IMG/VR virus record: IMGVR_UViG_3300045988_044618
Location: 1 to 39,864 of that record
Strand: one strand, 5' to 3'
Source of the DNA: a virus
DNA length: 39,864 nucleotides
Shown: positions 443 through 11,261 of the stretch, piece by piece
How positions within the stretch are numbered: the first letter of the stretch is position 1
Layout: every line of letters starts with the position of its first letter
The notes under the pieces: generated by a model
What the model was told of the DNA's origin: nothing
The model's input: the letters and a program-made list of their open reading frames with translations, nothing else
Database searches by the model: none
Program-made: the position numbers and the translations under genes

Positions 443-745
443 TCAGGCTCCTTTTAAAAAGTTGATCAATGCAGTCCGAAGGTTTTCAAACTCTGTAATG
501 TCGTCCTGTGAGACATTAGGCGTGACGGTGGATTTACGCACGTCCGCCACCGGGTAATACGTTGCAAATTCGTCAAGCGTGATGCCCAGTGCGGCGCATG
601 CTTTGCCAACCTCCGGCCAGCGCCAATCATTAGCGCCGTTGATGCGGTTTGACATCTGAGTGCTGGACAAGTCGCACGCGTCCGCAAGACGCTGTTTGTT
701 GTAGCCCTTGCTTTTGATAAGCGCTGTAAAAGAAAGGTTTGTCAT
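443..745 (-). CDS. XRE-family helix-turn-helix DNA-binding protein (100 aa)
   Basis: HTH motif KGYNKQRLADACDLSSTQMSNRINGAN. The SD is AAAGGAGG, embedded in the AACTAGAAAGGAG element. It is the second gene of the leftward early operon. Confidence 0.8.
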   Translation of the reverse strand: MTNLSFTALIKSKGYNKQRLADACDLSSTQMSNRINGANDWRWPEVGKACAALGITLDEFATYYPVADVRKSTVTPNVSQDDITEFENLRTALINFLKGA

Positions 746-1614: not shown

Positions 1615-2526
1615 ATGGGCTTTTTTGACTTTTTGAAGCCGAAACCAAAAGTAAATGTTTCCATAACTACACATGAGCCGACTAAAGATGAAATTGCAAA
1701 GCAATACACTAATTACTGCAAAGCGCAAGCAGAAAAGCGGCACGCAGAGCAGGAAGAGCGTGCAAATGAGTATTTCTTGGCGCTTTCCGCTGATGATCTT
1801 GCAGACAAAAACGGCCTGAAGCCAACAGAAATTTTAATGCTTTCTTATTTAGAGAAATATTCCAGTGGAAAGCCTGTTGCAAAGTTCTGGCATTATGATT
1901 ATGGTGTTGATGACGTTTGGCCTATAATCAAAAAATTGGAATCAATGGGTTTTTCCGAAAACGGGAAATTGACCGAAAAGGGAAAAGAAGAAATAAAAAA
2001 TAACGAATATGTTTATTTTTGGCACAGAAAAACTTACGCTCGTGCTACTTTTTCCTTGTCAGAGTTTTGCCGCGCCGTAAACGCTCGAAGAGACATCCCG
2101 TATCGGGATTTAATATGGGGAAAATACAATAAACTATATATGGAAGCAATTTCGTCTCCAAAAAAATGCCGTGATTTACGATATTCCATGTATGAGTTTT
2201 TGGCAGACGAAAAAAAGTTTAAAACGGCTTTTTCTATGCTACTTGAAATACCTTTTTATGATATGAACTGCCAATATCCTTTTATAGCTCCTGGTATTAT
2301 GCAGGAACTAAAGAAAGCCCAAAAAAAGGCCGGCTTTACTGAAGATCAAATTTTTGATATGGCAAAAGAAAGATACGGCAGGATGCTTGTTGAAAACCCA
2401 ACTGTTCCTGCGATAGATGCCGCTGGTATTGTAACATCCTACATTTTTGGAAAAGATGGTCTCGCTCAAAGAGTTTTGAAATCTTACAATATTGATTGCA
2501 CCCGGCTATTTTCTAGCAACCATTGA
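1615..2526 (+). CDS. Hypothetical protein (303 aa) in AT-rich island between repressor and integrase
   Basis: This is a long uninterrupted ORF on the lysogeny-module strand. It is visibly more AT-rich than the rest of the genome. I recognise no motif, and the SD is weak (AAGG). Confidence 0.6.
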   Translation: MGFFDFLKPKPKVNVSITTHEPTKDEIAKQYTNYCKAQAEKRHAEQEERANEYFLALSADDLADKNGLKPTEILMLSYLEKYSSGKPVAKFWHYDYGVDDVWPIIKKLESMGFSENGKLTEKGKEEIKNNEYVYFWHRKTYARATFSLSEFCRAVNARRDIPYRDLIWGKYNKLYMEAISSPKKCRDLRYSMYEFLADEKKFKTAFSMLLEIPFYDMNCQYPFIAPGIMQELKKAQKKAGFTEDQIFDMAKERYGRMLVENPTVPAIDAAGIVTSYIFGKDGLAQRVLKSYNIDCTRLFSSNH

Positions 2527-2583
2527 TTGTATTTTACACAACTCACAGTTGTATTTCAACACTTTCACAAAAATACTCGTTTG

Positions 2584-2664
2584 TCAAATCTTTATAATCC
2601 GCTTTTTCGGTCTTCTGCGCCGCCCGTGTCTTGGTGGAACATCCAAATCAGGCAGTTTCTTCAT
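2584..2664 (-). CDS. Possible very small basic ORF (26 aa, MKKLPDLDVPPRHGRRRRPKKRIIKI)
   Basis: ATG at 2664 follows GCAAGGAGGG. It overlaps the end of the 40-aa ORF upstream. It is below the ORF-track length cutoff. Confidence 0.25.
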   Translation of the reverse strand: MKKLPDLDVPPRHGRRRRPKKRIIKI

Positions 2665-2770
2665 GGTCTTCTTCCCTCCTTGCACGGTCTTGCAGCACAG
2701 CACGGTACAGGGCTTCAATGTTTGCCGCATTACGGTTTTGGTAATTCTTTAGACGTTCCACGTTATTCAT
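2648..2770 (-). CDS. Possible small ORF (40 aa, MNNVERLKNYQNRNAANIEALYRAVLQDRARREEDHEETA)
   Basis: ATG at 2770 follows a perfect AGGAGG with an 8-nt spacer. It is below the ORF-track cutoff. Confidence 0.35.
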   Translation of the reverse strand: MNNVERLKNYQNRNAANIEALYRAVLQDRARREEDHEETA

Positions 2771-2953
2771 TGTTGATTCCTCCTGTGTTTTCTGTCTACA
2801 GTAAGAATCTTAACATGTTTTTTATACCATAGCTTCCATTTATTTCCATAGCATTTTTTGAAGAAATATTTCTTTATATTTTCTTGATTGCTACGGTAGA
2901 AAAATTTTACCGCATTTGAAGTGCAAAACATGTAAAAAATTGAGGGTGATAAA

Positions 2954-3547
2954 ATGGAAAGTAGAGCTGATTTCCGAGAACGTGAAGGGCTTATTCTTTC
3001 GCAGTGCCGGTTGGAATCCGGGCTTTCGCAAGAATATGTAGCCCGGCAGATGGATGTGAACATCCGCACGGTGCGCAACTGGGAAGAAGGGCTTTCCCCT
3101 ATCCGAAACGATGACCTGTTGATGTGGTTCACCGTCTGCAAACAATCCCCATGGCGCTGGCTGCAGCGAATCTGGATGCCGTCTGCATTCAGCGATACCG
3201 ATACTCCAAACTGGACGGACGAGCAGGTAGACAAGGCACTTTCTGATTATATCGCTCAGATGCCGAGCGTGTACAAGCGAAGGCTGCTGTATATCCTTTG
3301 TGGGGCGCACGGGAGCGATTGGGCGGGCCAGATAGACTTATTGTGCGCTAACGCTCATACGTCCATGCAAAGCCGTGTACGCGTCTGCCAGGCCGTAATA
3401 CAGAACTACCGGATAGATACCGTAACTGGGGATGACCCATGCCAGGAAAGCATCAAGCCGGACTTTGACCGCCTGCAAATATGCCTGCAAGCCGGAGAAG
3501 CTGCCGTTCTGGCAGGCAATGGCGAATATAACGCAAGGGAAAAATAA
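2954..3547 (+). CDS. HTH (XRE-type) protein with unknown ~130-aa C-terminal domain (197 aa)
   Basis: N-terminal motif ESGLSQEYVARQMDVNIRTVRNWEEG. The SD is GAGGGTGA. It lies directly upstream of the integrase on the same strand. Confidence 0.75.
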   Translation: MESRADFREREGLILSQCRLESGLSQEYVARQMDVNIRTVRNWEEGLSPIRNDDLLMWFTVCKQSPWRWLQRIWMPSAFSDTDTPNWTDEQVDKALSDYIAQMPSVYKRRLLYILCGAHGSDWAGQIDLLCANAHTSMQSRVRVCQAVIQNYRIDTVTGDDPCQESIKPDFDRLQICLQAGEAAVLAGNGEYNAREK

Positions 3548-3647
3548 AAAATCCCCTGCCGGTGGTGCCACACCAGCAAGGGATAAAGGGCCGTCAACAT
3601 AAAAAGTTGACGGCATTATTATAACACACACACAAAGGAGCCGCAAT

Positions 3648-4733
3648 ATGAAAAGGACAAATACTGCAAAATGGATTGAAAGCGCCGGGCGTTGGCAAAT
3701 CAACGTGCAGAAGAACGGAGTGCGCAAGACGTTTACCAGCGCCAAGCCGGGCCGCACAGGCCAGAGGGAAGCTAACAAAAAAGCAGATGAATGGCTTGAC
3801 ATAGGCGTAAAGACGGAACGCATTAAGGTTTCTGACGCATGGGAACAGTTGTTACAGCAGAAAAAACTTGTGTCTGATGCAGAATACAAAAACATGGCAT
3901 CGTTTGGGCGCTCCCATTTGCTGCCAGCCATCGGGGTCAAGTCAGTAAAAGCCGTTACGGAACAGGATTTCCAAAAAATTATAGATTATGCGTTTCGCCA
4001 TCCACAGGGGAACAGCAAAGATCCCTTATCCAAAAAGACGTTACAGAACTATGCCAACTACTGCAAGCAATTTGTGAATTTTTGCCGAAAATCAAAATGG
4101 ACAACGCTTGAGCTTGAAGAGTTACAGATTCCGGCAGCGTCCAGAAAAAAGGGAAAGAACGTTCTGACAGTTGAAGCGCTGAACACACTATTAAAAGTAG
4201 ATACGACCATCATGCGCGGAAAATCTGTGCACGATGAATACATAAATTATTACAGGTTCCAAGTGCTAACAGGTATGCGCCCCGGTGAAATGCGGGGGCT
4301 GCGATGGGAAGACGTTGACGGGAATTTGTGCAGGTTGAAGCAGGCTATCAATGCGCACGGGCAAATCACGAAGGGAAAAAACGAAAACGCTTTGCGCACG
4401 GTCGTGCTATCCAGACGCGCAGTGGACGTGCTGGAAGCTCAGAAAGCCGTAACTGGAAAGCAGGAGTACATCTTCCCCATGGCATCCATGCACACCTACT
4501 ACCACCGCTGGCAGCGCTATCAGCGCTCTAATGACATGCCGGAGCTGAGTCTTTACGAACTGCGCCACACATTTGTTAGCATAGCAAAAGAGTTGCCAAC
4601 GGGCGAGTTAAAGCAGCTTGTCGGGCATAGCAAGGATATGGACACCTACGGCACATACTCTCATCACATCGCCGGAGACGACAAACGGACAGCGCAAAAT
4701 CTACAAGAAATCTTTGACAGACTGGTGGACTAA
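3648..4733 (+). CDS. int: Tyrosine recombinase / phage integrase (361 aa)
   Basis: Catalytic-domain motifs are present: GMRPGEMRGLRWEDV (Arg), LYELRHTFVS (H-x-x-R) and GHSKDMDTYGTYSHH (His/Tyr). The SD is AAAGGAG. attP-like repeats lie immediately downstream. Confidence 0.95.
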   Translation: MKRTNTAKWIESAGRWQINVQKNGVRKTFTSAKPGRTGQREANKKADEWLDIGVKTERIKVSDAWEQLLQQKKLVSDAEYKNMASFGRSHLLPAIGVKSVKAVTEQDFQKIIDYAFRHPQGNSKDPLSKKTLQNYANYCKQFVNFCRKSKWTTLELEELQIPAASRKKGKNVLTVEALNTLLKVDTTIMRGKSVHDEYINYYRFQVLTGMRPGEMRGLRWEDVDGNLCRLKQAINAHGQITKGKNENALRTVVLSRRAVDVLEAQKAVTGKQEYIFPMASMHTYYHRWQRYQRSNDMPELSLYELRHTFVSIAKELPTGELKQLVGHSKDMDTYGTYSHHIAGDDKRTAQNLQEIFDRLVD

Positions 4734-4953: not shown

Positions 4954-5091
4954 CTATTTTCTCTGCAAACTGTGTACCAAATCATTATACACATCCGGAC
5001 GTGCTTCTTTCAGCGCATCCATAAACTCATCCAGCACACGCCACACTCGCCCGGTATCGGCCTTTTTTACAATCTCCAAAAATTCACTCAT
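4954..5091 (-). CDS. Small protein (45 aa), paralogous to the C-terminus of the upstream 117-aa protein
   Basis: ATG at 5091 overlaps the upstream stop (ATGA). VWRVLDEFMDALKEARPDVYNDLVHSL resembles AALNVLDELMSALYVANPKVYNGVMRKL of 5084..5437. It is below the ORF-track cutoff. Confidence 0.55.
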   Translation of the reverse strand: MSEFLEIVKKADTGRVWRVLDEFMDALKEARPDVYNDLVHSLQRK

Positions 5092-5437
5092 CCTGTAAAC
5101 GCTCCAATTTCCGCATTACGCCATTATAAACTTTAGGGTTTGCTACATACAAGGCCGACATAAGCTCATCCAGCACGTTCAGCGCTGCTGCGATGTCTAC
5201 GTTTGACACAGCCCGTAAAAAGTCACTGCTGCCAACAGCAGCCCTTGCAGACGGCTCTGCCGCTTCGTAGTAGCGCACAGGCTCTTGCAGTTTTGCTTTC
5301 TGCGGAGAATGGGACGCATCTGCAAGACGCTGATTTTTCACAACATACAGCGCTGCCAAATTTTTAACTCTGGTCATGGTGAGTTCGCTGTTTTCGATTT
5401 CGGCTATAGCGCCGTCAATCTCTCGCACGTCAACCAT
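5084..5437 (-). CDS. Hypothetical protein (117 aa), accessory operon
   Basis: The SD is GTGAGGTG. The protein is predicted helical. It is tightly linked to 5455..5850. Confidence 0.7.
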   Translation of the reverse strand: MVDVREIDGAIAEIENSELTMTRVKNLAALYVVKNQRLADASHSPQKAKLQEPVRYYEAAEPSARAAVGSSDFLRAVSNVDIAAALNVLDELMSALYVANPKVYNGVMRKLERLQDE

Positions 5438-5454
5438 AGCCCTTACACCTCACT

Positions 5455-5850
5455 TTAACCGTTTCGCATCGTGTCAATGCAGCGCTGGATGACTTCCCTG
5501 TCTTTGCTGTCAGCCCCGCGCATAATATCTTCCATGCGGGAAATCAGTGAATCGCGCCCATCGTCCATGCTGTAGTGCCCGCGCACATAATGCGAACCGC
5601 GCCGCGCATAGCTGCTGCCGCGTCCATAATTGCCGCGCATATTGGCGCTCCAATCACCATCGCGGCTGTAATCCTCATCGCGGCTGTAACCGTCATCTTC
5701 CAGCATGACAATTTTGTCGATGTTTTTGATAGTGTCAGTCAGCTTGTGAACAGTTTCCAAGTCACCGGCAGACATTTCACCCTTCTTTCCGATTTCGTCC
5801 AGTTCTGCGCACAGCATGTCTTTCAAGTCATACAAAACTCTTTTACTCAT
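5455..5850 (-). CDS. Hypothetical protein (131 aa) with helical N-domain and Arg/Gly/Tyr/Ser/Asp-rich low-complexity centre
   Basis: The SD is AAAGGAG. The low-complexity centre reads DDGYSRDEDYSRDGDWSANMRGNYGRGSSYARRGSHYVRGHYS. Confidence 0.7.
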   Translation of the reverse strand: MSKRVLYDLKDMLCAELDEIGKKGEMSAGDLETVHKLTDTIKNIDKIVMLEDDGYSRDEDYSRDGDWSANMRGNYGRGSSYARRGSHYVRGHYSMDDGRDSLISRMEDIMRGADSKDREVIQRCIDTMRNG

Positions 5851-5862
5851 GATTTACTCCTT

Positions 5863-6285
5863 TCAGCTCACTCTCTCGACCACAAAGTTTGCGTTCGCAA
5901 ACAAAACGGTTTGTGTGCTTGTATTTTCGGCGGCAACGGTCAGGCAGCAGCCGCGCGGAACTTCAACAAAAGACGTCACATAGATATTAAAGAAGTTTTC
6001 TACTGCTGCCGGTGTCACGGTTGCAGTCGCACTGTTCAGCGGTTCACCGTTGATAGCAAGCGCCGCCGTGATAGCTTCCACTGTGCCGCCTGTAGGGATA
6101 GCAACGTTTGCACCGAAGCCCACTTTGAAACGCGCTTTGCACTGGTTCGTAATGCCGCGCAGCGTAACAATACCGGCGCCTTCTCTGTGTACGACACAGC
6201 CCTTGCCCGCTACTGCCGTTTCCGTCAACGGCACGTTCTGGCCTGCTGCCACGCTCACGGTATTGGCGTTTGTAAATTCAGCCAT
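5863..6285 (-). CDS. Beta-rich 140-aa protein, possibly a TNF/C1q-like (BclA C-terminal-domain-like) fold
   Basis: The SD is GAAAGGAA and there is no signal peptide. It has four Cys (GKGC, NQC, RGCC) and alternating beta-strand-like pattern. The fold assignment is from memory and is unverified. Confidence 0.7.
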   Translation of the reverse strand: MAEFTNANTVSVAAGQNVPLTETAVAGKGCVVHREGAGIVTLRGITNQCKARFKVGFGANVAIPTGGTVEAITAALAINGEPLNSATATVTPAAVENFFNIYVTSFVEVPRGCCLTVAAENTSTQTVLFANANFVVERVS

Positions 6286-6300
6286 AAAATCATTCCTTTC

Positions 6301-6335
6301 AAAAAAAGATAGTGGCGGGACGATTGCCCCGCCAC
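6301..6335 (-). terminator. Intrinsic terminator/attenuator inside the accessory operon
   Basis: On the minus strand: GTGGCGGG-GCAATCGT-CCCGCCAC followed by TATCTTTTTTT. It sits between the 258-aa and 140-aa genes. Confidence 0.6.
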
Positions 6336-6398
6336 ATTTTGCACTATCGGCACGGGGCCGAACATGTCAGATGTTCCGACAAGTTGCCGTATTCATTT

Positions 6399-7175
6399 TT
6401 AGCATCCGCAGCTGTTGCAGGCGCCGCAATTCCCATACTGATACGGTGCGGGAACAGGGAAAGCCGGAACAGGGCGGGGGTTGTAGTAAGCAAGCTGCCC
6501 GCTCATATAGGCTTTCAGCGTTTCATTCTGCGCGGCCTGACTTGCGGCAAGCTGTGCAGCGAAAAGCTGCTGGTTCTGCTCGGCAATCTTGGCATCTTTA
6601 GCCTCAATGCGCTGCGCCGTCAGTGCGTCAAGCACAGCGCGGGCGTTCGCGTTCTGGTTTTCGATGATGTCCCGAGTGCCGTTCTGAATGGTCTGGCGCG
6701 TGTCGCAAGCCTGCGTAGCGAGGTTGTAGTTTACGCCCTGGATAGCCTCGCGGGTCTCGCAGCAGCAATTCGCCTGCTGCATCTGCATGGCGTTGAGCTG
6801 CTGCATAAATGCCGCCTGCTGATTGGCGCGGCTGATTTCGGCGCTCATAAAGCCCTGCTGCATAGCGTTCTGCACACCGTTGACAAGCTGTGCCTGAGCA
6901 TAGAAGCCGTCACACAGACCGTTGTTCACGACGTCGATTTTGCGTTCGATGTTGGCAAAGTCGCTGGTGAGGATGTAACCATCGACAGCGCCAGCACCAT
7001 TACCGCCGCCAAAGCCGTTGTTGCCCCAGTTGCCGCCCCAGCCGCAGAAAACGAAGAGGAAGAGAATGATAATCCACCACGCACCATCGCCGCCAAAGCC
7101 CCAGCCGTTGCCATTGCCCGTATTCGCGGGCTGAACAGGCATTGTCATAACAGTGCCGTCCGAAGAAAGACTCAT
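6399..7175 (-). CDS. Gly/Asn/Gln-rich membrane-anchored protein with Cys-rich C-terminus (258 aa)
   Basis: The SD is AAAGGAG. The N-terminus is GNGNGWGFGGDGAWWIIILFLFVFCGWGGNWGNNGFGGGNG, a Gly-rich flanked TM segment. A long Q/N/A-rich region contains QQANCCCETRE. The C-terminus is YQYGNCGACNSCGC. Confidence 0.8.
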   Translation of the reverse strand: MSLSSDGTVMTMPVQPANTGNGNGWGFGGDGAWWIIILFLFVFCGWGGNWGNNGFGGGNGAGAVDGYILTSDFANIERKIDVVNNGLCDGFYAQAQLVNGVQNAMQQGFMSAEISRANQQAAFMQQLNAMQMQQANCCCETREAIQGVNYNLATQACDTRQTIQNGTRDIIENQNANARAVLDALTAQRIEAKDAKIAEQNQQLFAAQLAASQAAQNETLKAYMSGQLAYYNPRPVPAFPVPAPYQYGNCGACNSCGC

Positions 7176-7229
7176 GTTTAACTCCTTTCAAAAGTTGAAT
7201 GTATTGTTCACCGTGCGCACGGGTTGAAC

Positions 7230-7448
7230 CTATTTTAAAAAGCTCTGAAACTGCTGCGCCATCGCTTGAAGCTGATTTAGCTGCTGCTGGCTCATTTTGC
7301 CAGATTGCAGCAACTTTTGAACTTCTTGTTTCGGGTCGCCTTGAAAATCCTGTCGGAACTGCTGAAACTGCTGCATCATTTGCTGAAATTGTCCCATTGC
7401 GCCCGGCATTTTGCCGCCGCTAAGAGCGTTAAACAGAGGGTTGCTCAT
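7230..7448 (-). CDS. Gln-rich small protein (72 aa)
   Basis: The SD is AAGGAGG. Sequence: MSNPLFNALSGGKMPGAMGQFQQMMQQFQQFRQDFQGDPKQEVQKLLQSGKMSQQQLNQLQAMAQQFQSFLK. Confidence 0.75.
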   Translation of the reverse strand: MSNPLFNALSGGKMPGAMGQFQQMMQQFQQFRQDFQGDPKQEVQKLLQSGKMSQQQLNQLQAMAQQFQSFLK

Positions 7449-7899
7449 TGTCTGCCTCCTTTTTCTTGCGCGTCAAAGGTTTATCTGCCGCCAGCGCGTC
7501 AAAGCGGGCTGTCAACGCGTTGAACTCTTGCCGTGTGACATATTCCTCTTTCGGTTTTTGCGCGGTCTGTGCTGGCTGTTTCTGGCTTGCCGTGCGTTCC
7601 GAGTAGTCAAAAACGCGCAATGGCTGAGGCATACCGCTGGCGTCGGTGGCCTTAATGTAAAATGTACTGTTTTCGCTGTCCATCAGCAGTACGCTGTTCC
7701 CTGCCGCCACCATATACGCTTTGGCTCCCTCTTCGCCTTGCACCCAGATAATAGGCGAGCTTTGCTGTGCCGGTTGCTGCTGCGGATATGCCGCCTGTCG
7801 GAGCTGTGCGAGTTGATCGGGCATGGCCGACGGCATCTGCTGCCCCATTGGATAATATCCCGGTGCGAATCCAGGTTGATACGGTACGCCAAACGCCAT
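7429..7899 (-). CDS. Pro/Gln/Tyr-rich N-terminus plus small beta domain protein (156 aa from ATG 7899)
   Basis: The track ORF starts at TTG 7905. ATG 7899 follows AAAGGA. The core is IIWVQGEEGAKAYMVAAGNSVLLMDSENSTFYIKATDASGMPQPLRVFDY. Confidence 0.75.
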   Translation of the reverse strand: MAFGVPYQPGFAPGYYPMGQQMPSAMPDQLAQLRQAAYPQQQPAQQSSPIIWVQGEEGAKAYMVAAGNSVLLMDSENSTFYIKATDASGMPQPLRVFDYSERTASQKQPAQTAQKPKEEYVTRQEFNALTARFDALAADKPLTRKKKEADNEQPSV

Positions 7900-7905
7900 A
7901 GTCAA

Positions 7906-8280
7906 TCATCCTTTCTGCCAGTAGTACAGCGGCACTTCATCTCCGCTGTCCCATGTATCCAGCCAATCCCCATTTTGCACGCACACAACATGCGTCGCCA
8001 TTGCCAAAATATAAGTGCCGTCCGGTTGGTCTTTTGCAAACTGCGCCACTGTGTAACAGTCCGGGCAACTGTTCGGAATTGCCGAACGGTTCCACCCGCA
8101 CCGCCGAAGATAGTGGCCCCAAACATAGTTTGCAGACGGCATATCATGCAGTTCAAATCCTGCCAGCACCAGCGCCGCATATACAGCCTCCCACGATTGA
8201 TGTGTTGCGGCTGCAATGGCTCTGACGGTGCAATCGCCAACGCGCTTTTGCTCTGGGTTCAAGTTTAATTCTCTGTACAT
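7906..8280 (-). CDS. Putative papain-like (C39-like) cysteine peptidase-fold protein (124 aa)
   Basis: The SD is AGAGGA. It has a Cys/His/Asp pattern: GDCTVRAI ... MATHVVCV ... DTWDSG. It is the first gene of the accessory operon. The fold call is inferred from the motif pattern only. Confidence 0.6.
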   Translation of the reverse strand: MYRELNLNPEQKRVGDCTVRAIAAATHQSWEAVYAALVLAGFELHDMPSANYVWGHYLRRCGWNRSAIPNSCPDCYTVAQFAKDQPDGTYILAMATHVVCVQNGDWLDTWDSGDEVPLYYWQKG

Positions 8281-8338
8281 GGTTTTATCCTCTATATTTA
8301 TTGTAATATTTTACACATTTTCGCGTGCGCCACATCTG

Positions 8339-8371
8339 CGCCAACTTTACGCCAACTTTACGCCAACTTTT
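8339..8371 (+). repeat. Tandem repeat CGCCAACTTTA x3 (11-bp period)
   Basis: Copies lie at 8339-8349, 8350-8360 and 8361-8371 (the last base differs). The array sits 24 bp upstream of the -35 of the consensus promoter. Confidence 0.8.
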
Positions 8372-8394
8372 TTATAAAAATCCCGCAATTCCAC

Positions 8395-8423
8395 TTGACA
8401 TTACTACGCTAGCGTAGTATAAT
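8395..8423 (+). promoter_or_regulatory. Consensus sigma-70 promoter with 18-bp palindromic operator
   Basis: TTGACA (8395-8400), 17-nt spacer, TATAAT (8418-8423). The perfect palindrome TACTACGCTAGCGTAGTA (8402-8419) fills the spacer. Confidence 0.8.
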
Positions 8424-8467
8424 ATAGACACAGTAAGAAATAACCACTTACACGAAAGGAAATAAAA

Positions 8468-8827
8468 ATGAGTAAGCTCGATTTTAGCGACGCCATCTAT
8501 AAACAGACCCACGTCCGCATTGACAACAACGCCCTCATCGACGACATCCGCAAGGCCATCAGCACCAGCGAAATGGAGAACGACGAGCGCCAGCGCATCA
8601 CCGGACAGGATGATGTCATGGAGCGCTGGGAGTACCTCGTCGACTTCCACCGGGACGAGATTCTCGACGACGACGGCGAACTTCTGCAGGTCACTGACAC
8701 CGTGAAGGTCATCGAGATCACCATTTACCCGCGCAGCCGTAACTCCGTCTTTGTCCGCGCCGGATTCCCTGTCAATGAGGACATCTTCGTTGAGCTTCCC
8801 GCCGACGCCGACAGCTTTGAAATCTAA
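8468..8827 (+). CDS. Small highly acidic protein (119 aa; 28 Asp+Glu vs 13 Lys+Arg)
   Basis: The SD is GAAAGGAA. It lies on the plus strand, opposite to the flanking operons, and is the first gene after the consensus promoter. I recognise no motif. Confidence 0.75.
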   Translation: MSKLDFSDAIYKQTHVRIDNNALIDDIRKAISTSEMENDERQRITGQDDVMERWEYLVDFHRDEILDDDGELLQVTDTVKVIEITIYPRSRNSVFVRAGFPVNEDIFVELPADADSFEI

Positions 8828-8840
8828 AAGGAGGCCATCT

Positions 8841-9329
8841 GTGGAAATTTCCCTAAAGGAATACGCCGCCCGGCATAGCCGCGCCGCGGCGACTGTCCGC
8901 CAAAAGGCCATCCGTGGCGGATTTAAGACCGCTCGCCGCGTTGGCCGTGACTGGCTCATTGATGAAGATGAACCCTACATTGACGAGCGCTTTGCCATGC
9001 TTTCCACGCCGCCAGACCTGTGGCTTTTGACAAACGGCAGGCACAGCCGCACCATCAGCGACGCCGGCGCCGTCAAAATCGGCAGCGACGAATTCTCCGC
9101 TCTTATTCCAACCGGCGCGGGTGACGGCGAATCTGCCTACTGCATCTATACGCGGGCAGAGCTGGACGCCGTCGGCATCAACACCGCCGACCTTCACTAC
9201 TTCACCCTTGTTTCCGGCAGCTTCAACATCTACGACTACGACTGCGGGTGCACCGTATCGGAGACTGTAAAAGGAATCTTCAACGTTTTCTATGCGGACG
9301 GTATCGTCTTTTTTGTAAAAGCCGAATAA
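8841..9329 (+). CDS. Excisionase/MerR-like HTH (HTH_17-type) N-domain protein with unknown C-domain (162 aa from GTG 8841)
   Basis: AAAGGAGG, 6 nt, then GTG. The N-terminus is ISLKEYAARHSRAAATVRQKAIRGGFKTARRVGRDWLI. The longer track ORF (8751) overlaps the upstream gene and lacks an SD. Confidence 0.7.
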   Translation: MEISLKEYAARHSRAAATVRQKAIRGGFKTARRVGRDWLIDEDEPYIDERFAMLSTPPDLWLLTNGRHSRTISDAGAVKIGSDEFSALIPTGAGDGESAYCIYTRAELDAVGINTADLHYFTLVSGSFNIYDYDCGCTVSETVKGIFNVFYADGIVFFVKAE

Positions 9330-9332
9330 AAT

Positions 9333-9385
9333 AAAAAAGCGCCCCTCCAGTGTCCACCATGGACACAATGAGGGGCGCTTTTTAT
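9333..9385. terminator. Bidirectional intrinsic terminator
   Basis: AAAAAAGCGCCCCTC ... GAGGGGCGCTTTTT with an inner GTGTCCA/TGGACAC hairpin. It lies between the convergent genes 8841..9329(+) and 9382..9552(-). Confidence 0.8.
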
Positions 9386-9552
9386 TCAGCCTTCAACTTC
9401 CCAACAATCGCCTTTACCCGTCTGTTTACCGTCCGTTCACTCAAATTCAGTTCTGCCGCAATATCAGCATTGCGCCAGCCGCGCCGCCGAAGCTGCAAAA
9501 CATCCGTTTCTTCATCGGTCAGCAAACCGCCGACAAAATCAAACTTTGGCAT
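9382..9552 (-). CDS. LuxR/GerE-type (sigma-70 region 4-like) HTH protein (56 aa)
   Basis: Sequence: MPKFDFVGGLLTDEETDVLQLRRRGWRNADIAAELNLSERTVNRRVKAIVGKLKAE. The ATG lies 2 nt after the holin stop. It is below the ORF-track cutoff. Confidence 0.7.
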   Translation of the reverse strand: MPKFDFVGGLLTDEETDVLQLRRRGWRNADIAAELNLSERTVNRRVKAIVGKLKAE

Positions 9553-9554
9553 GA

Positions 9555-9749
9555 TTACTCATCCTTCTTGTTCTTGCTTTCGGCCTGTGTGCCAAAATAA
9601 AAGGCCACGACCATTGTCACAATGGTCATGACCGTGTCAGGCTGTAATTTCTCCCGCAGCGCCAATGCCGCAAACACTGCAACAACAACCAGCGTCACAA
9701 TGGTTTTTACCTTGATAAGCGCTGCCAGATTTTTTAAAAAATCGCCCAT
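9555..9749 (-). CDS. Putative holin (64 aa, two TM segments)
   Basis: Hydrophobic segments are IVTLVVVAVFAALAL and VMTIVTMVVAFYFG, with a charged C-terminus KNKKDE. The SD is AAAGGGAG. It lies in the lysis cassette. Confidence 0.7.
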   Translation of the reverse strand: MGDFLKNLAALIKVKTIVTLVVVAVFAALALREKLQPDTVMTIVTMVVAFYFGTQAESKNKKDE

Positions 9750-9765
9750 TGATATGCACTCCCTT

Positions 9766-10119
9766 TCAGCCGATCAGATGATTTTGCAAGGCTTCCTTTG
9801 CTTTCTGCATCTGGTCAATGTTGTTCCCATCCAGATTGTGGTCAAGCAGGGCCAGCAATGCCTGCATGGTCACATGCTGCCCCTCGTCCATGCGGTCAAG
9901 CCGCTGCTTGTCGTTTTTCAAGAATCCCTCCATGACATTCACCCGCGTTTCGAGCTGTGTGATGCGTTTGTCCTGGTCGGCTTTCGGCTTTTTTATGGCA
10001 GTGATGACTTTGCTGATGGCAACGCCCCCAGCATACAGTCCGGCGGCAGCGCCCGCCGCGTAAATTAAAAACGCCCAGGCCTCCGCAAGCGTAAACGAAA
10101 ATACGTGCTGCATAGGCAT
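9766..10119 (-). CDS. Membrane-anchored coiled-coil protein of the lysis cassette (about 117 aa)
   Basis: The N-terminal TM segment is AWAFLIYAAGAAAGLYAGGVAI, followed by a helical region. It lies between the endolysin and the holin. The start overlaps the endolysin stop (GTGTGATG). Confidence 0.65.
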   Translation of the reverse strand: MPMQHVFSFTLAEAWAFLIYAAGAAAGLYAGGVAISKVITAIKKPKADQDKRITQLETRVNVMEGFLKNDKQRLDRMDEGQHVTMQALLALLDHNLDGNNIDQMQKAKEALQNHLIG

Positions 10120-11261
10120 CACACCTCCACAAATTTAGCGTGATACGCCTTGTCGTTGTCCAGACCGTACTTCTTGGCGATGAGGTAGAACTCCATCGCC
10201 GCAGCGTTCGGCAGGACGACGTGATCCAGCCAGACTTCCTGATGCGTCGGCGCGGCGGGCTTGTCCTCTTTGATGGCGGCATCGTACCGTGTCAGGTTGA
10301 ACTGCTTTACGACAGCCAGCAGACTTGCGGTATACGTCGGACTGGTTGCCCAGCCATCAGCCCGGATGTACTCGCACGCCTTGTTGATGTCGGTACAGCC
10401 GACCAGATTGGAATAGCGCGGCATGGTCGTCAGCTTTTTGATGTAGTCCTCGACGCAGGCGACCATCGTATCGTAGGCGCGGAAGCCCGCCGTGATGGTG
10501 ATGTACTTGCTGCCGTCCCACTCCTTCGTAGCCTTGTTGTACACTCTGCCGCTCCAATTGCTGGCCTTGATGCCGAACAGGTTGTTTGCCTGTACTGCAA
10601 GCTCGCTCGTGCCGTAGGCGCTCTCCAAGCAAGCCTGAGCAATGCAGAGGGACGGGAGAAGATGCGCATTCAGGCAGCGGCTCTGGCACTTCTCGGCCAT
10701 GACGTCAATGAACGTTTGCTCTTTCGTCTTGGCGGGCGCCGCGTCTGCCACGTCGCCCTTCAAGCGCTTCGTGACCTGTGCCGCAATGTCGGGGAACTTG
10801 CTCTTGAGATAGGGGCCGGGGCAGGCGGTAGCCGCGTAGAAGCAGTGCATCGTGAGCGAGCCGTTCTTGTCGCCGGTGTAGGTCAGTTCCTTGATGCCGT
10901 TGCGGCGGCAAATGTCGGTGCAAAGGTCGAGCAGGGCGGCATACGCCTTGTCGCTGACGTGCCAGTCCGGTGCGCTGCTGTCGTTAGCGACTTCGATAGT
11001 AATGGCCCGCTGGTCGTTCCACGGGCTGGAACTGCACCACGACCTGTCCGCCTCGTGGCAGAACAGCCCGATACGCCCGCCGGATTCGATGGCGTAGTTT
11101 GCGCTCATCTGGCGTGAGGGCCTACTGACAAGAGCGCCGAAAGATTCAAGCGTCATGTTGCCAGCCATGTGATGAACTGTAATCTTGCTGATGGGCTGGC
11201 TCCGGGGCCGGTTGCAGTTTGGGCTGATGGCCGTGTAAACGGCCAGTGCAGAATCACTCAT
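10119..11261 (-). CDS. Bifunctional endolysin: N-acetylmuramoyl-L-alanine amidase (Amidase_2/PGRP-type) + glucosaminidase domain (380 aa)
   Basis: Amidase_2 motif: ITVHHMAGN ... SANYAI ... RSWCSS ... NDQRAITIEVAN. Glucosaminidase motif: LPSLCIAQACLESAYGTSELAVQANNLFGIKA. Confidence 0.9.
   Translation of the reverse strand: MSDSALAVYTAISPNCNRPRSQPISKITVHHMAGNMTLESFGALVSRPSRQMSANYAIESGGRIGLFCHEADRSWCSSSPWNDQRAITIEVANDSSAPDWHVSDKAYAALLDLCTDICRRNGIKELTYTGDKNGSLTMHCFYAATACPGPYLKSKFPDIAAQVTKRLKGDVADAAPAKTKEQTFIDVMAEKCQSRCLNAHLLPSLCIAQACLESAYGTSELAVQANNLFGIKASNWSGRVYNKATKEWDGSKYITITAGFRAYDTMVACVEDYIKKLTTMPRYSNLVGCTDINKACEYIRADGWATSPTYTASLLAVVKQFNLTRYDAAIKEDKPAAPTHQEVWLDHVVLPNAAAMEFYLIAKKYGLDNDKAYHAKFVEV

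Follow-up and report, generated by a model that had tools for sequence, protein, structure and literature searches.

RESULTS

A two-gene plus-strand unit in a temperate gut phage

We analyzed a short operon at positions 8328 to 9383 of a 39,864-nucleotide (nt) stretch of viral DNA (IMG/VR record IMGVR_UViG_3300045988_044618), which is referred to below as the window. The window corresponds to a temperate siphovirus-like genome from a human-gut source, and its closest records in GenBank are human-faecal phage fragments without annotation. The operon contains two genes, called here gene 1 and gene 2; the lysis cassette lies on one side of it and an accessory block at 5084-8280 on the other. A preliminary description had proposed that this unit is oriented against the surrounding minus-strand operons and that it resembles the operons formed by anti-CRISPR (acr) genes and their anti-CRISPR-associated (aca) regulators. 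The orientation was as described, with the flanking genes on both sides found on the minus strand, and the structural genes of the window are on the minus strand as well. The features of the unit are the following.

8328 to 8372, plus strand: four CGCCA-N6 direct repeats in an 11-bp phase, starting at 8328, 8339, 8350 and 8361
8395 to 8423, plus strand: sigma-70 promoter, TTGACA (8395-8400), 17 nt, TATAAT (8418-8423), matching 12 of the 12 consensus bases
8402 to 8419: 18-bp perfect palindrome TACTACGCTAGCGTAGTA, with halves TACTACGCT and AGCGTAGTA, predicted operator of the helix-turn-helix (HTH) domain of gene 2
8468 to 8827, plus strand: gene 1, ATG start, 119 amino acids (aa), ribosome binding site GAAAGGAAA, candidate effector
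8841 to 9329, plus strand: gene 2, GTG start, 162 aa, ribosome binding site AAGGAGG at 8828-8834
8841 to 8990, plus strand: gene 2 N-terminal domain (N-domain), aa 1-50, winged helix of the lambda-Xis/BldC type, predicted Aca-like autorepressor module
9012 to 9329, plus strand: gene 2 C-terminal domain (C-domain), aa 58-162 and stop codon, acidic and mostly beta, candidate second effector
9334 to 9383, both strands: bidirectional intrinsic terminator, with a 7-bp stem nested in a 14-bp GC-rich one

The 12/12 promoter was unique in the 39.9-kb window, with 0.00 such matches expected from 100 shuffles. A conserved ATAGACA motif is present just 3' of it and is probably the transcription start region. 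The palindrome fills the spacer of this promoter and overlaps the first two bases of the -10 element; no second copy was found in the window with up to 2 mismatches allowed. Further upstream, CGCCAACTTTA is repeated at 8339-8370 (period 11, 2.9 copies, 100% match), and a fourth, degenerate CGCCA unit is present at 8328, so that 3 overlapping pattern matches were counted against 0.26 expected. The repeats stop 22 nt upstream of the -35 element and occur nowhere else in the window. At the other end of the unit, the terminator hairpin had a folding free energy of -35.6 kcal/mol on the plus strand and -35.9 kcal/mol on the minus strand (z = -9.3 and -8.4, respectively), and a U-run follows it on both strands. 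Gene 1 and gene 2 are co-directional, 13 nt apart, and have one promoter and one terminator between them. The perfect consensus promoter, the 18-bp palindrome in its spacer, the three tandem 11-bp repeats before it and the bidirectional terminator after the two genes had all been noticed in the preliminary description. Each was confirmed, with the degenerate fourth repeat unit as an addition and with a corrected start for gene 2 (GTG at 8841, not at 8842).

Gene 2 is composed of two modules

Gene 2 had been described as a protein with an excisionase/MerR-like HTH and an unknown C-domain. In its AlphaFold model (predicted local distance difference test [pLDDT] score of 82), the N-domain forms a beta-helix-helix-beta-beta winged helix that superposes on lambda Xis (1rh6_B) with a template modeling (TM) score of 0.77 and a root mean square deviation of 1.7 Å over 51 columns. 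A Foldseek search against the PDB also returned BldC, Pukovnik Xis and RdfS, and the Xis-type fold of the predicted model bears out the type of HTH first suggested. A profile of the N-domain was compared with the solved structures of the PDB, and neither a solved Aca nor AcrIIA1 was among the matches. The linker that follows is disordered in the model, with pLDDT values below 50 at residues 51 to 54. The C-domain model is all-beta, with a net charge of -8. It had no counterpart in the PDB according to Foldseek, and when the gene 2 model was compared with BFVD, the sole match for the C-domain was an uncharacterized gut siphovirus protein. Structure prediction combined with Foldseek, the check proposed at the outset, thus placed the N-domain of gene 2 among Xis-type folds and gave no PDB match for the C-domain or for gene 1.

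Sequence searches gave a similar picture. Nothing significant was obtained for either protein in Pfam, PHROGs, NCBIfam or PADLOC, with no Pfam match for gene 2 at an E value of ≤1, and comparison of both proteins with PDB sequences returned only noise. When gene 2 was searched with tblastn against 50,697 GenBank phage records, only the N-domain found a match, in Bifidobacterium phage BigBern1, where all the neighboring genes are hypothetical. A literature search on the signature motifs of both proteins returned nothing relevant.

The two halves of gene 2 were found apart from each other in other loci. Domains of the type of residues 1 to 50 recur with at least five unrelated C termini, among them a Cas8c fragment, and are more often stand-alone proteins of 55 to 70 aa with a basic tail. 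Domains of the type of residues ~58 to 162 recur as free-standing 123-aa proteins. In another phage, a counter-oriented unit of two genes starts with the C-domain alone, followed by an 82-aa HTH_3 (Xre-type) protein; an 18-bp direct repeat is present in the promoter spacer and leader of this unit. Because the C-domain is elsewhere the first gene of its own effector-HTH unit, gene 2 is probably better read as a regulator-effector fusion than as the plain autorepressor first proposed. The HTH part of that proposal was retained, and the C-domain appeared to be an autonomous acidic module. AcrIIA1, which combines an HTH with an inhibitor domain, is the basis of this fusion analogy.

The spacer palindrome covaries within the regulator family

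To place the regulator among its relatives, genome and viral collections were scanned with the N-domain profile; 11 loci in Clostridia genomes and 80 viral contigs were recovered. Counting also the contexts fetched earlier, we located the HTH domain at 103 places in the fetched gut phage contigs and Clostridia genomes. Among the genome hosts were Eubacteriaceae, Anaerovoracaceae, Pseudoramibacter, Lacrimispora, Roseburia, Lachnospiraceae and Acutalibacteraceae. At 84 of the 103 places, a promoter with 10 or more of the 12 consensus bases was present within 2.6 kb upstream, and most of these 84 have a 17-nt spacer with an inverted repeat in the same register as the palindrome of the window. Wherever the palindrome was present, the distance between the promoter and the HTH gene was 44 to 1500 nt. 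The sequences of the arms vary by lineage yet remain complementary, as follows (loci are given by L numbers).

Arms TACTAC..GTAGTA: the window, L017, L026, L061, L086 and L094
Arms TACATC..GATGTA: L019, L045-48 and L083-85
Arms CAACG..CGTTG: L049
Arms CATCG..CGATG: L040 and L042
Arms TCCG..CGGGA: L022 and L099-L110

In a set of 40 distinct promoters, seven pairs are free of the constraint of the -10 element; these were 72% complementary in register and 13 to 30% complementary when shifted. Pair 11-22 was AT in 17 promoters and TA in 11; pair 12-21 was AT in 13, TA in 8 and CG in 7; pair 15-18 was CG in 15, AT in 6 and TA in 3. The values of these three pairs were reached in at most 1 of 2000 shuffles, and together with pair 16-17 they were above nearly all of 2000 column shuffles. 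The operator class also follows the predicted recognition helix of the protein: helices of the form A/D-x-[VA]RQK go with CTAC..GTAG arms, V/I-x-[VA]RQ[KR] with CA(T/A)C arms, and VRHKC with TCCG..CGGGA arms. Because the arms covary with each other and the operator class tracks the recognition helix, these comparisons provide good indirect evidence that the HTH of gene 2 reads the palindrome at 8402-8419. The site overlaps the -10 element, and binding should therefore repress the promoter.

Neither the palindrome nor the CGCCA repeats are peculiar to the window, since related loci conserve both. The repeats are kept, in 2 to 6 copies, in all loci with a gene2-type regulator, whatever the upstream gene; most of the remaining HTH-family loci lack them. 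Their possible roles are a site at which the Xis-fold domain binds direct repeats, as is typical of this fold, a site for the 56-aa GerE-type protein encoded next to the unit (9382-9552), or part of a divergent promoter of the minus-strand block. One further member of the family, in a metagenome-assembled genome of Eubacteriaceae (L016, 1416-4198), is a stand-alone 73-aa HTH homologue located right after a CRISPR array and a Cas2-DnaQ-like open reading frame (ORF). The array has a 61-nt period and spans ~2340-3740, and a RelB/RelE-like pair follows the HTH homologue.

The acidic gene 1 product belongs to a small family that changes regulators

The product of gene 1 contains 17 Asp and 11 Glu residues against 4 Lys and 9 Arg residues, giving a net charge of -15 and a pI of 4.3, in agreement with the very acidic 119-aa protein described initially. 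In a first search, the only relatives found were more than 90% identical, and the gene was orphan-like; an exhaustive phmmer and profile search recovered a small family with 27 to 55% identity, characterized by the motifs WITGQDD...WEY...I(T)PRS..F..AG. A tblastn search against the same 50,697 GenBank phage records gave no match. In the predicted model (pLDDT, 89; predicted TM score, 0.78), two helices are packed on a long three-stranded sheet, and Foldseek against the PDB found no match to this fold, including Ocr, ArdA and any solved Acr. One ORF of 96 aa, P0010, on a 1.2-kb ENA contig, joins the N terminus of a pyruvate:ferredoxin oxidoreductase (PF01855) to the last ~43 residues of gene 1 and is probably an assembly chimera or a recombination junction.

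Four alternatives were found as the first gene of operons with a gene2-type regulator, and the last of them shows that two such genes can be united in a single protein.

Gene 1: 7 loci
A 111-aa divergent relative of gene 1: 5 loci
An unrelated 82-aa protein: 12 loci
A 218-aa fusion of the 82-aa domain with a gene1-like domain: 3 loci (L040, L042 and L043; 2331-2987)

Relatives of gene 1 were also found with other partners: ahead of a 68-aa HTH_3 protein at a prophage edge, where the palindrome GTACCGCTAAAGCGGTAC fills the promoter spacer; ahead of a 77-aa HTH_26 protein after a lysin gene; and in a palindrome-bearing three-gene unit with the promoter TTGACA-ATGTCACGATATCGTGC-TATTAT, located between lysis genes and int. 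The gene 1 family is paired with three unrelated regulators. Comparison of the Xre-type regulators that partner relatives of gene 1 and of the C-domain with solved structures returned no Aca; the regulator of L007 resembles C.AhdI and C.BclI. Independent swapping of effectors and regulators is a pattern described for acr-aca loci (AcaFinder preprint).

Cargo includes an AcrIC5-family gene and a Cas8c-fragment fusion

We defined cargo as the ORFs that separate the promoter from the HTH gene or immediately follow the latter. In the fetched loci, the cargo falls into 45 unrelated clusters of mostly small, acidic proteins (net charge of -5 to -22), almost none of which has a family. Pfam recognized only three kinds among 36 cluster representatives, namely, an AcrIC5-family protein, a 110-aa GNAT protein and zinc-ribbon proteins, and PHROGs added HNH/AP2-like and ParB-like proteins.

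The AcrIC5-family gene, of 58 aa, was found in L011, L013 and L054 (PF22147; 91.7 bits, E = 3e-26). Its promoter, TTTACA-TTGTAGAGCTAGCGCTG-TATTAT-ATAGACA, is homologous to that of the window, and the gene is followed by an HTH homologue that is 84% identical over the domain. An AcrIC5 homologue from a Gram-positive source blocks type I-C interference experimentally (PMC10651486), and AcrIC5 has been found co-localized with many putative Aca families (AcaFinder preprint). A 29-aa ORF after acrIC5 (L011, 4875-4964) was considered as an RNA anti-CRISPR (Racr) and rejected, as it is a truncated copy of a 105-aa acidic cargo gene that is intact in L054 (2576-2893). RNA anti-CRISPRs and CRISPR-repeat-like elements were also sought with Rfam in the operon and in the acrIC5 locus, which yielded only sub-threshold chance hairpins.

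In L112 (384-872), the final ~110 residues of Cas8c/Csd1 are joined to the same HTH. The Cas8c segment of this protein, P0071, matched positions 446 to 556 of the 559 positions of PF09709 with 32.6 bits and also matched TIGR01863. The gene is driven directly by TTGACA-ATACTACGCATACAGAG-TATAAT, and the half-site TACTACGC is present in this promoter. In type I-C systems, the C-terminal region of Cas8c is separately translated as Cas11. A validated Acr from Listeria, AcrIB4, is homologous to the Cas8b C terminus and is Cas11-like (10.1101/2025.06.06.658234), and by analogy P0071 is a candidate subunit-mimic anti-CRISPR against type I-C.

Other recognizable cargo was more diverse. One cargo gene, in L085 (2556-2888), encodes a 110-aa GNAT acetyltransferase under the same type of promoter, which recalls AcrVA5, an acetyltransferase anti-CRISPR. 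Basic zinc-ribbon/AP2-like proteins matching the PHROG category "HNH endonuclease" are encoded in or beside the operons of L019 (3280-4017), L024 (4108-4605) and L011 (5479-6219). Genes with AP2 domains are reported to be common neighbors of acr loci in clostridial phages (10.1101/2023.05.22.541795).

DISCUSSION

A self-regulated candidate anti-defence operon

The data support a self-regulated operon, and we consider this architecture highly probable. That the region at 8328-9383 is an autonomous, negatively autoregulated accessory operon that serves as an anti-defence (anti-CRISPR-type) locus of a temperate phage of gut Clostridia is our favored interpretation, held with a fair degree of confidence. 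On entry of the phage DNA, the consensus sigma-70 promoter would give a burst of transcription. The Xis-fold winged helix of gene 2 would then accumulate and, as a dimer, bind the 18-bp palindrome across the spacer and the start of the -10 element, so that the promoter would be shut down. In the meantime, two acidic effector modules would be delivered, gene 1 and the C-domain of gene 2, the latter fused to the regulator as in AcrIIA1. These modules may inhibit host immunity; a type I-C or related class 1 CRISPR-Cas system is our best guess for the target, made by association, and another nucleic-acid-targeting defence could be the target as well.

Comparison with known systems supports an operon of the acr-aca type in which the regulator has an excisionase fold and the two candidate effectors have no known fold. 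As in acrIF1-aca1 and acrIF8-aca2, small, acidic and poorly conserved ORFs precede a conserved HTH gene, a strong promoter carries inverted repeats overlapping its core elements, and cargo and regulator shuffle independently, one homologous operon having an AcrIC5-family gene. The acr-aca layout claimed in the preliminary description, an effector ahead of an HTH gene with an inverted repeat in a strong promoter, therefore holds as a recurring design, except that gene 2 does not appear to be a plain autorepressor. Unlike in those operons, the regulator has an excisionase (Xis/MerR-like) winged-helix fold and no significant Pfam HTH match, whereas the best Pfam matches of 12 known Acas include HTH_24, HTH_3, HTH_29, KORA, DUF1870 and YdaS_antitoxin (AcaFinder preprint).

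The fusion of a predicted N-terminal DNA-binding module with a separable C-module, and the joining of one HTH to varied C termini, are reminiscent of AcrIIA1 and AcrIIA13-15; gene 2 differs from these in having no sequence or fold similarity to them in the PDB. The HTH of AcrIIA1 is Xre-like. The Cas8c C-terminal segment fused in P0071 would be the type I-C counterpart of the Cas11-like subunit mimic AcrIB4, with the difference that this fusion is found in a related locus and not in the window, whose gene 2 C-domain is unrelated to Cas8c. Gene 2 residues 1 to 50 share their fold with lambda Xis, Pukovnik Xis and BldC, which bind arrays of direct repeats head to tail. In contrast to these, the conserved, covarying element of the gene 2 family is a palindrome within the regulator's own promoter, and the gene does not follow the integrase from locus to locus. 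Finally, the preliminary description had cited acidic DNA mimics as a precedent for gene 1. Gene 1 (net charge, -15) and the C-domain (-8) are strongly acidic, as are Ocr, ArdA, AcrIIA4, AcrIC5 and AcrIC9; neither module is structurally similar to a solved mimic. Only the strong acidity of that precedent was retained, and the analogy is one of charge, which is not diagnostic.

Alternative interpretations

Gene 2 could instead be a plain two-domain transcription factor whose C-domain serves for dimerization or ligand sensing, with gene 1 as the only effector. A palindromic operator needs a dimer and Xis-type domains are typically monomeric, the interdomain linker is modeled with low confidence as in many regulators, and the initial model of the locus is compatible with this view. 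However, most members of the family are 55 to 70 aa long and lack the C-domain, and they are found behind equally good spacer palindromes (L026, L083 and L019). The C-domain also occurs as a free-standing 123-aa first gene with its own Xre regulator behind it, the HTH carries any of at least five unrelated C-terminal extensions, the Cas8c fragment among them, and the C-domain is acidic like other cargo. We therefore regard this possibility as unlikely. Less probable still is the alternative raised in the preliminary description, that gene 2 serves as the excisionase (recombination directionality factor) of the phage, gene 1 being an unrelated moron. The lambda Xis fold of the N-domain, weak excisionase matches in PHROGs and Pfam, the presence of direct repeats, the usual form of Xis sites, just upstream, and the failure to recognize another xis gene in the window would favor it; indeed, no second Xis-like gene was found in the window with lambda Xis or the HTH_17 protein of L014 as queries. 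This alternative is disfavored because an identical protein, P0021, is encoded beside integrases that are only 21% identical (L001 versus L002). Similarly, L014 has a 98% identical HTH next to an integrase that is 21% identical to that of the window. Between the window and L001, the integrases are 94% identical and the gene 2 proteins only ~70%. Family members are also located far from an integrase, beside a terminase gene or beside a chromosomal CRISPR array, and the early operon of L014 has a separate HTH_17 protein. In the window, the palindrome is present only in the protein's own promoter, and both it and the CGCCA direct repeats are 3.6 kb from int.

The unit could also be a lysogenic-conversion moron of another kind, self-regulated by its HTH and acting in prophage defence, superinfection exclusion or a toxin-antitoxin-like manner, which we consider somewhat less likely than the plain-regulator alternative but more likely than the excisionase. 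It lies in the accessory region between lysis and int, and HTH autoregulation through promoter operators is typical of toxin-antitoxin and C-protein systems too (cf. L007). On the other hand, PADLOC gave no match for either protein or any neighbor, the two proteins lack domains of an enzymatic or membrane type, the hypervariable cargo consists of small, acidic proteins, and the sole recognizable relatives in homologous operons (AcrIC5 and the Cas8c fragment) suggest counter-defence. Several points nevertheless weigh against an anti-defence operon controlled through the palindrome. The strong, constitutive-looking promoter with its own terminator, directed counter to the late operon, fits another kind of moron as well. 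Xis-type winged helices usually bind direct repeats as monomers, so that a dimer on the palindrome is an assumption, and the gene 2 protein could bind the CGCCA direct repeats just upstream instead of, or in addition to, the palindrome. Shared ancestry is ignored in the covariation statistics. Gene 1 and the C-domain are unlike any known Acr or anti-defence protein in sequence or fold, in a comparison covering Pfam, PHROGs, NCBIfam, PDB sequences, Foldseek against the PDB and GenBank phages. The CRISPR link itself is guilt by association, drawn from two of the 45 cargo clusters or fusions.

Significance of the locus

Anti-defence genes of human-gut Firmicutes phages are poorly charted because of their low sequence conservation, and their discovery leans on anchor regulators. 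The locus analyzed here supplies such a regulator together with a DNA signature, TTGACA, a 17-nt spacer palindrome and TATAAT, which marks the 45 candidate-effector clusters in the fetched loci, including the AcrIC5 homologue, the Cas8c-fragment fusion and the small GNAT. Standard HTH-profile screens probably miss gene 2 because it has no Pfam match at E ≤ 1 and, at 162 aa, exceeds the 150-aa limit of AcaFinder. If the proteins are active, gene 1 and the C-domain would be two new inhibitor folds, and the operator/recognition-helix pairs would provide orthogonal repressor-promoter parts.

A bolder proposal, which we put forward tentatively and regard as doubtful, is that the Xis-fold HTH is a previously unnamed, widespread Aca family of gut Clostridia phages, that gene 1 and the C-domain represent two new families of anti-CRISPR or other anti-defence proteins, and that the CGCCA repeats are a second site, at which the same HTH protein would bind as an Xis-style filament. 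If so, the promoter/operator cassette would mark dozens of anti-defence genes, and gene 1 and the C-domain would have new folds, the latter in a regulator-inhibitor fusion. Control would be two-tiered, with the palindrome for repression and the direct repeats for architecture or activation, an arrangement not described for any Aca.

Genomic neighborhood

The other genes of the window to which we refer are listed here.

443 to 745, minus strand: Cro-like HTH protein
2954 to 3547: CI-like HTH_3 protein
3648 to 4733: integrase
5084 to 8280, minus strand: seven-gene accessory block, flanking the unit on one side, between it and the integrase gene
9382 to 11261, minus strand: lysis cassette with a gene for a 56-aa GerE-type HTH protein, flanking the unit on the other side
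9766 to 10122, minus strand: holin of the lysis cassette
10119 to 11261, minus strand: amidase/glucosaminidase of the lysis cassette
33 to 39 kb: replication genes (PD-(D/E)XK nuclease, SSB, DnaB and RusA)

Clostridial acr loci have also been found placed beside the lysis module, as is the unit here (10.1101/2023.05.22.541795). The block at 5084-8280 includes a phrog_3754 protein, a Q-rich 72-aa protein and a Gly/Asn/Cys-rich 258-aa protein, and none of its genes had a Pfam or PADLOC match. It is kept in L001 and L005, and a different block is present instead in L002-L004 and L014. At the end of the lysis cassette (9382-9552, minus strand), the 56-aa protein has an HTH of the GerE/LuxR or sigma-70 region-4 type. 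It adjoins the unit also in L002, L014 and L015, and it may act as a regulator of the downstream minus-strand accessory block or through the CGCCA repeats.

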